Shown here: piece by piece, positions 30,976 through 31,019 of the stretch
Numbering within the stretch: the stretch's first letter is position 1
Layout of the letters: each line of letters opens with the position of its first letter
From: Candidatus Omnitrophota bacterium
GTDB taxonomy: Bacteria > Omnitrophota > Gorgyraeia > Zapsychrales > JANLHA01
Reading direction: 5' to 3'
Assembly (NCBI GenBank): GCA_040753435.1
Contig: JBFMEN010000067.1
Coordinates: 2,441-66,440 of the forward strand
Length of the DNA stretch: 64,000 nucleotides
Notes under the pieces: model-generated
The model's database searches: none
Told to the model about the DNA's origin: nothing
Seen by the model: only the letters and a program-made list of their open reading frames with translations
Made by a program: the position numbers and the translations under genes

Positions 30976-31019
30976 TTTTACCGCGTTTCCCTGGCAGATT
31001 TAATAAAATATGTTATATT
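30976..31019 (+). promoter_or_regulatory. conserved 44-bp upstream element with extended -10 (TGtTATATT), copy 1, upstream of giant gene 2
   Basis: TTTTACCGCGTTTCCCTGGCAGATTTAATAAAATATGTTATATT is identical to 36177..36222. Confidence 0.6.

Follow-up and report, generated by a model that had tools for sequence, protein, structure and literature searches.

An identical 45-bp promoter-like block upstream of two anciently diverged giant genes in an Omnitrophota bacterium

Giant genes at the locus

Three giant paralogous genes, all on the forward strand, were found in the window, i.e. the whole 64-kb stretch of Omnitrophota DNA that was analysed. G1 occupies the ORF at 22133-29554 with a likely start at ATG 22271, G2 (31079-36118, GTG start) encodes 1679 aa, and G3 (36319-47721) encodes 3800 aa with a Ser/Thr kinase domain. 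Each encodes a protein with a signal peptide and a ~360-aa conserved N-terminal domain. A C-terminal motif of the GGIDLNP...PVIINITP type is common to G1 and G3, and a more divergent version is present in G2, for which Pfam returned no match.

The start codons of two of these genes appear to need revision. G2 corresponds to the GenBank protein AB1650_08755 (1633 aa; 76,133-bp contig), whose start sits 46 codons downstream of GTG 31079. Since GTG 31079 is preceded by the Shine-Dalgarno sequence GAGGAG (31067-31072, +) and restores the family signal peptide, the deposited start is probably too short. For G1, ATG 22271 is more likely than the listed TTG 22133, from which translation would read through a gene remnant (see below).

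The giant-gene family (homologues P0002-P0120) is very large and was found only in Omnitrophota. Its members share a layout of signal peptide, 360-aa N-terminal domain, highly variable middle and C-terminal GGIDLNP...GFxPxIINxxP motif. The middle parts contain histidine-kinase ATPase domains or a Ser/Thr kinase, and in homologues also glycolytic enzymes, UGPase, response regulators and methyltransferases. For the N-terminal domain, GTDB genomes yielded more than 580 relatives, from which 79 loci were kept, all of them in Omnitrophota; in the protein database it has more than 4,300 relatives and is fused to very diverse enzymes. The domain itself gave no sequence match in Pfam, NCBIfam or PDB, and no Foldseek match in PDB (model pLDDT 71). 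Among GTDB genome contigs without the source species, the best match was 59% identical, and no close orthologue of G2 was found in the protein database. Elsewhere in the window, a 121-aa ORF (56549-56914, +) consists of the family C-terminal module alone (GGIDLDP...INGFTPVIINITP), as either a stand-alone copy or a fragment.

Two exact copies of a 45-bp block

A preliminary description of this DNA had reported a 44-bp repeat upstream of G2 and G3, at 30976-31019 and from 36177 onwards. We found exactly two copies of this 44-mer in the 64-kb window, both on the forward strand, at 30976-31019 and 36179-36222, so that the first position stood and the second start had been placed 2 nt off. One extra identical base on the 5' side extends the repeat to 45 bp, at 30975-31019 (+) and 36178-36222 (+). 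No third copy of the 44-mer with up to 3 mismatches was present in the window, and 0 matches were expected from 100 shuffles. The block ends lie 59 nt upstream of the start codon of G2 (31079) and 96 nt upstream of that of G3 (36319).

The identity stops abruptly on both sides, with mismatches directly outside both block ends (c/a at 30974/36177 and c/t at 31020/36223). The remaining intergenic DNA around the two copies could not be aligned by MAFFT, and blastn-short recovered the 45-mer alone, in agreement with the earlier statement that the surrounding DNA is unrelated. The region upstream of G1 showed no similarity to either intergenic region by MAFFT or blastn-short and contains no copy of the 45-mer.

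Promoter architecture of the block

Each copy of the block (TTTTTACCGCGTTTCCCTGGCAGATTTAATAAAATATGTTATATT) has the parts of a core promoter at the expected places, and is predicted to serve G2 (copy 1) or G3 (copy 2). A -35-like hexamer, CTGGCA, at 30991-30996 (copy 1, +) and 36194-36199 (copy 2, +) matches TTGACA at 4 of 6 positions. It is followed, in the consensus scan, after a 17-nt spacer by TATATT, which matches TATAAT at 5 of 6 positions. The block ends in TGtTATATT (31011-31019 and 36214-36222, +), as had been described before, and the consensus scan flagged its TG as an extended -10. The extended -10 of sigma-70-type promoters is TGn in E. coli and takes the form of the '-16 region' TRTG in Bacillus and other Gram-positives. 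With the preceding TA, the sequence directly upstream of the block -10 reads TATGt and fits TRTG, and G occupies that column in 64% of 56 homologue promoters. The block thus resembles extended -10 sigma-70 promoters in its cTGgCA and TATAtT hexamers 17 nt apart, in the TG one base upstream of the -10, in its spacer, whose proximal half is A/T-rich, and in its placement in sense orientation ahead of both start codons. Unlike the E. coli and Bacillus cases, the host phylum is uncultured and is not known to have a mapped promoter, and the promoter class is nearly limited to one gene family.

The CTGGCA hexamer is the less canonical part, and TTGGCA and TTGnnn variants were found in the same -35 register in homologues, the TTGGCA type occurring in L005, L017, L052 and L056. 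The 5' end of the block is a T-tract, TTTTTA (30975-30980, +), read from the sequence, which lies 11 nt upstream of the TGG in the -35 and may be UP-element-like. TTTTTA also occurs at G1, 10 nt upstream of the TTG of the G1 promoter; the homologue profile showed no strong signal upstream of the -35.

A sigma-54 reading of the TGGCAG within the block was considered and rejected. Sigma-54 promoters (TGGCAC-N5-TTGCW) share this element with the block, but the block continues as TGGCAG-ATTTA-ATAA, with ATAA instead of TTGC and hence no GC at -12, so that the GG-N10-GC rule does not hold, and a sigma-70-type -10 lies 17 nt downstream.

In the block we found neither dyad nor direct-repeat symmetry, the sole symmetry being AATAT-N3-ATATT in the -10 region. 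The consensus scan taken alone is weak evidence, with 17 promoter-like sites found against 14 expected, and a comparative test on homologues was therefore used.

A promoter model derived from the giant-gene family

In the 79 loci, which come from other genomes, homologue start codons were set heuristically to the nearest in-frame ATG by the tblastn register, and signal peptides were checked. Comparing k-mer counts in sense and antisense over the 185 nt upstream of 75 homologues, the top strand-specific 8-mers were ATATGTTA and TATGTTAT, with 14 sense and 0 antisense occurrences; TATACTT (19/1) and CTTGTTTT (11/0) were likewise strand-biased. Expectation maximization on 73 homologue upstream regions of other Omnitrophota genomes, with the window excluded, gave the family motif aacTTG.tTTT...aaAtATATGtTATACTTt. 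Of the homologue sites, 56 reached 12 bits or more, and in these the median distance from the end of the -10 to the start codon is 51 nt.

When both strands of the window (~128,000 positions) were scored with the resulting position weight matrix (PWM), the top three sites were located upstream of the three giant genes, namely G1 (17.8 bits), G3 (block copy 2, 16.1 bits) and G2 (block copy 1, 15.5 bits), and the next site reached 12.1 bits. The upstream regions of the other 28 genes in the window gave a maximum of 5.2 bits. The k-mer consensus served as the seed of the PWM search, which was, however, cross-validated: in a two-fold split by genome, held-out family genes had medians of 13.3 and 8.9 bits, compared with -1.6 and -1.9 for neighbours (p ~1e-10). 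A first control set of neighbouring ORFs had mostly coding-like upstream sequence and was replaced by ORFs with an ORF-free upstream region, of which 0/93 reached 10 bits, although some of these ORFs are possibly spurious or operon-internal. In L081, a locus new to the model, the rank-1 hit fell at the expected place. Mononucleotide shuffles of the window gave PWM maxima with a mean of 12.7 and a largest value of 16.5 bits. Because the 15-16 bits of the block fall within that range, its support comes from position and strand and not from the score alone.

The family consensus favours TATACTT over TATAAT and CTTGtt over TTGACA. The upstream regions of 4 tRNA genes in the homologue loci were sigma-70-like by eye (TTGnnn, TGn before the -10) and had low scores in the family PWM. 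In the data examined, the promoter class is almost confined to one gene family. The family may use the housekeeping promoter in its strongest form, or its promoters may be read by a dedicated sigma factor.

By this model, the 3' two-thirds of the block is a promoter of the class shared by the giant-gene family across the phylum. The earlier assignment as a promoter-like element was borne out by CTGGCA-N17-TATATT with its TG and by the high ranks of both block sites, and the reading of the block as a sigma-70-type core promoter is well supported. As a kind of element the 45-mer is ordinary, being of the sigma-70 type with an extended -10; its history and its restriction to one family are mildly unusual.

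Transcription by RNA polymerase holoenzyme is predicted to begin ~7 nt past the -10, around 31026 (G2) and 36229 (G3), so that each gene would have its own transcript. The G2 leader (31020-31078, +; fold not significant, z = -1.4) is unrelated to the G3 leader (36223-36318, +), and their predicted lengths from the transcription start are unequal (~53 nt and ~90 nt). As the core promoters are identical, G2 and G3 likely share their initiation signals. Co-regulation of the two genes, which the preliminary description had taken to follow, could at most be inferred from these signals, and the leaders differ.

A predicted G1 promoter of the same class and an upstream gene remnant

The best PWM hit in the window lies at 22200-22243 (+), upstream of G1 (CCCTTGTTTTT...AAGATATACTTAT), with TATACT at 22232-22237 (+) as its predicted -10. 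By this model, the G1 promoter belongs to the same class but has another sequence. It shares 17/44 positions with the G2 block, compared with 18 expected for independent class members. The earlier remark that G1 lacks the element is literally correct for the 45-mer, but misleading in that the best-scoring promoter of the same class is found there.

A remnant of the 390-aa gene located at 29734-30906 was identified at 22092-22154 (+), comprising 21 codons with one stop (tblastn E = 0.007; 84% DNA identity over 44 nt). This remnant upstream of G1 suggests that an ancestral unit, consisting of the 390-aa BNR/Ycf48-like gene and a giant gene, was duplicated. The GC hairpin that had been noted upstream of G1 lies inside the remnant, and CCCGGAAACC (22152-22161), which had been noted after it, continues from the 3' end of the remnant. 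The view of hairpin and CCCGGAAACC as a G1 feature in place of the block did not hold, as they sit at a decayed gene fragment and the 8-mer TTCCGGAA occurs 5 times in the window against 2.9 expected, i.e. without enrichment; CCCGGAAACC was accordingly dropped as a motif. In its present form, the remnant makes up a perfect GCGCTTGC/GCAAGCGC hairpin.

Candidate operator sites in the family

We found that a 12-bp palindrome, GAAAACGTTTTC (up to 1 mismatch), was located upstream of family genes at 16 loci in 15 genomes, including L010, L021, L027, L034, L036, L042, L049, L050, L060, L066, L070, L077 and L079. With up to 2 mismatches, its density was 1.06 per kb in the 300 nt preceding the start codon and 0.09 per kb elsewhere. 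Relative to the predicted transcription start, its centre lies at -60.5/-61.5 (4 loci) or at +9.5 to +19.5 (9 loci). By its form, the palindrome may well be an operator for a dimeric activator or repressor, and its core resembles LacI/cre-type sites.

GAAAACGTTTTC is absent from the 45-mer, and its sole counterpart in the window is a degenerate TATAACGTTTTC at 36275-36286 in the G3 leader, a 2-mismatch hit at chance level. With the block lacking both this family palindrome and the dyad or direct-repeat symmetry looked for above, the proposal that it contains an operator found no support. A perfect 15-bp palindrome, TTCCGGAtTCCGGAA, is present in the G2 leader at 31045-31059 (+), approximately +19 to +33, near the +9.5 to +19.5 band of GAAAACGTTTTC centres in other genomes.

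The identity of the two copies conflicts with the history of the genes

Comparative analysis of the coding sequences showed that G2 and G3 are ancient, not recent, duplicates. They share 55% of residues over 351 aligned codons, their four-fold sites are identical at 24/79 positions (30%), which corresponds to saturation, and their longest common coding run is 12 nt. By identity of the N-terminal domain among 26 other sequences, G2 ranks 22nd for G3 and G3 ranks 19th for G2, both having closer counterparts in other genomes than in each other. In a rough neighbour-joining tree of this domain, G2 joined a protein from a different genome, and G1 and G3 were loosely associated.

Promoter function does not explain the identity of the blocks. 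The class model carries ~15 bits, two independent members would be expected to share 18/44 positions, and the probability of full identity between them is 8e-19; function alone therefore cannot hold 45/45 positions. In the orthologue pair L020/L023, in which four-fold identity is still 66%, the -35 and -10 are intact and the spacer has 5 substitutions. As the similarity of the promoters thus conflicts with the history of the genes, a recent copy of ~45 bp is indicated, and a short-tract transfer of one promoter onto the other is the most likely cause of the identity.

The situation recurs in another genome. L005 (JAJDCA010000040) and L056 (JAJDCA010000082) are paralogues on different contigs of the MAG OFTM38 and share a promoter block at 43/47 positions, which begins 7 nt before the -35, runs on for 8 nt beyond the -10 and lies ~30-80 nt upstream of the starts. 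Their flanks are unrelated, their proteins are 57% identical, and their four-fold sites are saturated (18/77, 23%), so here too a near-identical promoter block sits on diverged paralogues. L057 and L071 have the -35 and -10 parts in common, with a different spacer. Over all loci, 4/42 same-genome pairs had 17 nt or more of contiguous upstream sequence in common, compared with 1/2808 between-genome pairs, the latter being an orthologue pair.

We consider it probable, though well short of certain, that the block is a complete sigma-70-family core promoter and that its two copies are identical through recent copying of one over the other. Such copying would proceed by short-tract gene conversion or template switching between adjacent paralogues, and could be anchored in the consensus parts common to all family promoters, i.e. 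the T-tract and the -10. Both ends of the block coincide with such features, the T-tract, which G1 has at a near-equal distance from its -35, and the -10 hexamer. Two observations speak against copying: a tract of ~45 bp with unrelated flanks is unusual for RecA-type conversion, which requires flanking homology, and the identity takes in the 16 nt that precede the -35, a stretch in which the family motif is uninformative. The sequence comparisons show the exact repeat, its promoter architecture, the presence of the class in homologues and its specificity to family genes, and the old divergence of G2 from G3, whereas the transcription starts, the activity of the promoters, their sigma factor and the way in which the copy arose are inferred.

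Similar cases are established in other bacteria, where gene conversion leads to concerted evolution of the 5' regions of paralogues, for instance in tufA/tufB, in rrn operon promoters and in the conserved promoter and signal-peptide regions of the Mycoplasma vsp/vlp families of surface proteins. As in these cases, the block is far more similar between the paralogues than neutral divergence allows, and conflicts with the gene tree. Unlike in those cases, G2 and G3 share only the core promoter of ~45 bp and not the leader, signal peptide or coding 5' end, and no phase-variation repeat or invertible element was found at G2/G3.

Alternative explanations

The extension of the identity to 16 nt upstream of the -35, a region that is variable in generic promoters, would also fit the reading of the preliminary description, in which the block combines a promoter with the binding site of a dedicated regulator or sigma factor, and purifying selection holds all 45 bp in a small regulon of G2 and G3. 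The strong family specificity of the promoter class, the comparable block shared by L005 and L056, and the separate operator-like palindrome that family genes elsewhere carry in fixed register with the promoter can be cited for it as well. However, neither symmetry nor GAAAACGTTTTC was found in the 45-mer, selection on a regulator site seldom fixes all 45 positions while four-fold sites saturate, the spacer varies between orthologues, and G1, of the same family and at the same locus, has none of the block-specific sequence, with 17/44 positions shared; we regard this explanation as unlikely. About equally unlikely is an insertion scar, in which a G2 cassette entered at the G3 promoter and left the two copies behind as direct repeats, through single-crossover or site-specific integration of a circle with the same 45 bp or through target duplication. 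In that case promoter function of the upstream copy would be a by-product, and recombination between the repeats could delete G2. A recombination origin was kept as a rival because the copies exactly bracket G2, the phylogenetic outlier of the three, which groups with a protein from another genome: the segment 31020-36177 consists of the G2 leader, its ORF and a 59-nt tail, with no terminator-like site between G2 and the second copy. In this bracketing of a single gene by two identical direct repeats, the arrangement resembles attL/attR cores and integron cassettes. It differs from them in that no integrase, transposase or other mobility gene was found in the segment (the upstream gene is BNR/Ycf48-like), there are no attC-like imperfect inverted repeats, and the repeat is itself a predicted promoter from end to end, at a working distance from both start codons. 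Furthermore, the nearest relatives of G2, L080 and L081, have family-type promoters without likeness to the block-specific sequence.

Two further explanations would remove the block from promoter function altogether. The copy search covered 64 kb of the genome, which leaves some room for a generic dispersed repeat of the REP or MITE kind that is unrelated to transcription. This is very improbable, since there are only two copies in the window, both in sense orientation and at promoter distance from genes of one family, the block contains no hairpin or inverted repeat and folds no better than chance (-2.3 kcal/mol, z = +0.6), and it fits an independently derived promoter model. JGI metagenome contigs scanned with a 20-mer and with a gapped 22-base pattern of the block gave no match, and neither did a scan of viral contigs. 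The least probable reading of all assigns the block to a transcribed RNA element, for example a leader, a riboswitch or a small RNA, as nothing beyond the intergenic location speaks for it. Rfam gave no match at either block site at E up to 1; a single match in 20000-48000, to sraL, lies inside a coding region and was dismissed as chance. The lack of a stable structure also argues against an RNA element, as does the DNA downstream of the block, the would-be transcribed part, which differs between G2 and G3.

Implications for the phylum

In the literature searched, no promoter had been described for Omnitrophota: a search for the phylum with promoter and sigma factor returned nothing relevant, and the word 'promoter' is absent from the main text of the preprints on the giant genes. 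For this phylum, 176 complete genomes are reported in 10.64898/2026.06.07.730766. The block and its relatives provide a usable promoter model for the phylum, one that marks the transcription units of its characteristic giant genes. For annotation, the model backs upstream start codons that restore signal peptides, such as GTG 31079 of G2. Under the favoured reading of recent copying, paralogues can exchange promoters long after their coding sequences have diverged, with coupled expression of G2 and G3 as a possible consequence.

A broader picture can be drawn only tentatively, and we hold it to be considerably less likely than the copying of the 45-mer. The expanded family of secreted multi-domain or giant proteins would be regulated jointly across the phylum, as a regulon whose promoter class is its own and either depends on a dedicated sigma factor or represents the strongest housekeeping consensus, with GAAAACGTTTTC as operator at ~-61 or ~+15 from the predicted start. 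Promoter blocks would be exchanged within genomes in a concerted evolution of promoters only, of which the 45-mer would be the freshest case.

Other repeats in the window

A second intergenic repeat of 52 nt, with 90% identity between its copies, is located at 56942-56993 and 58206-58257 (+), and contains the sequence ...GGACGACTTCAAAyTTTGGAACAATCCCCGGGAAACACGmAG.... One copy lies upstream of a 168-aa gene that is followed by a TudS-related desulfidase-like gene, and the other lies upstream of a SAM methyltransferase gene. The GGAAC-N15-CG within this repeat is loosely like an ECF-sigma promoter. In addition, the region 62454-63659 (+) contains four direct repeats of a 63-nt segment, spaced 381 nt apart and with 60-76% identity to the reference copy.
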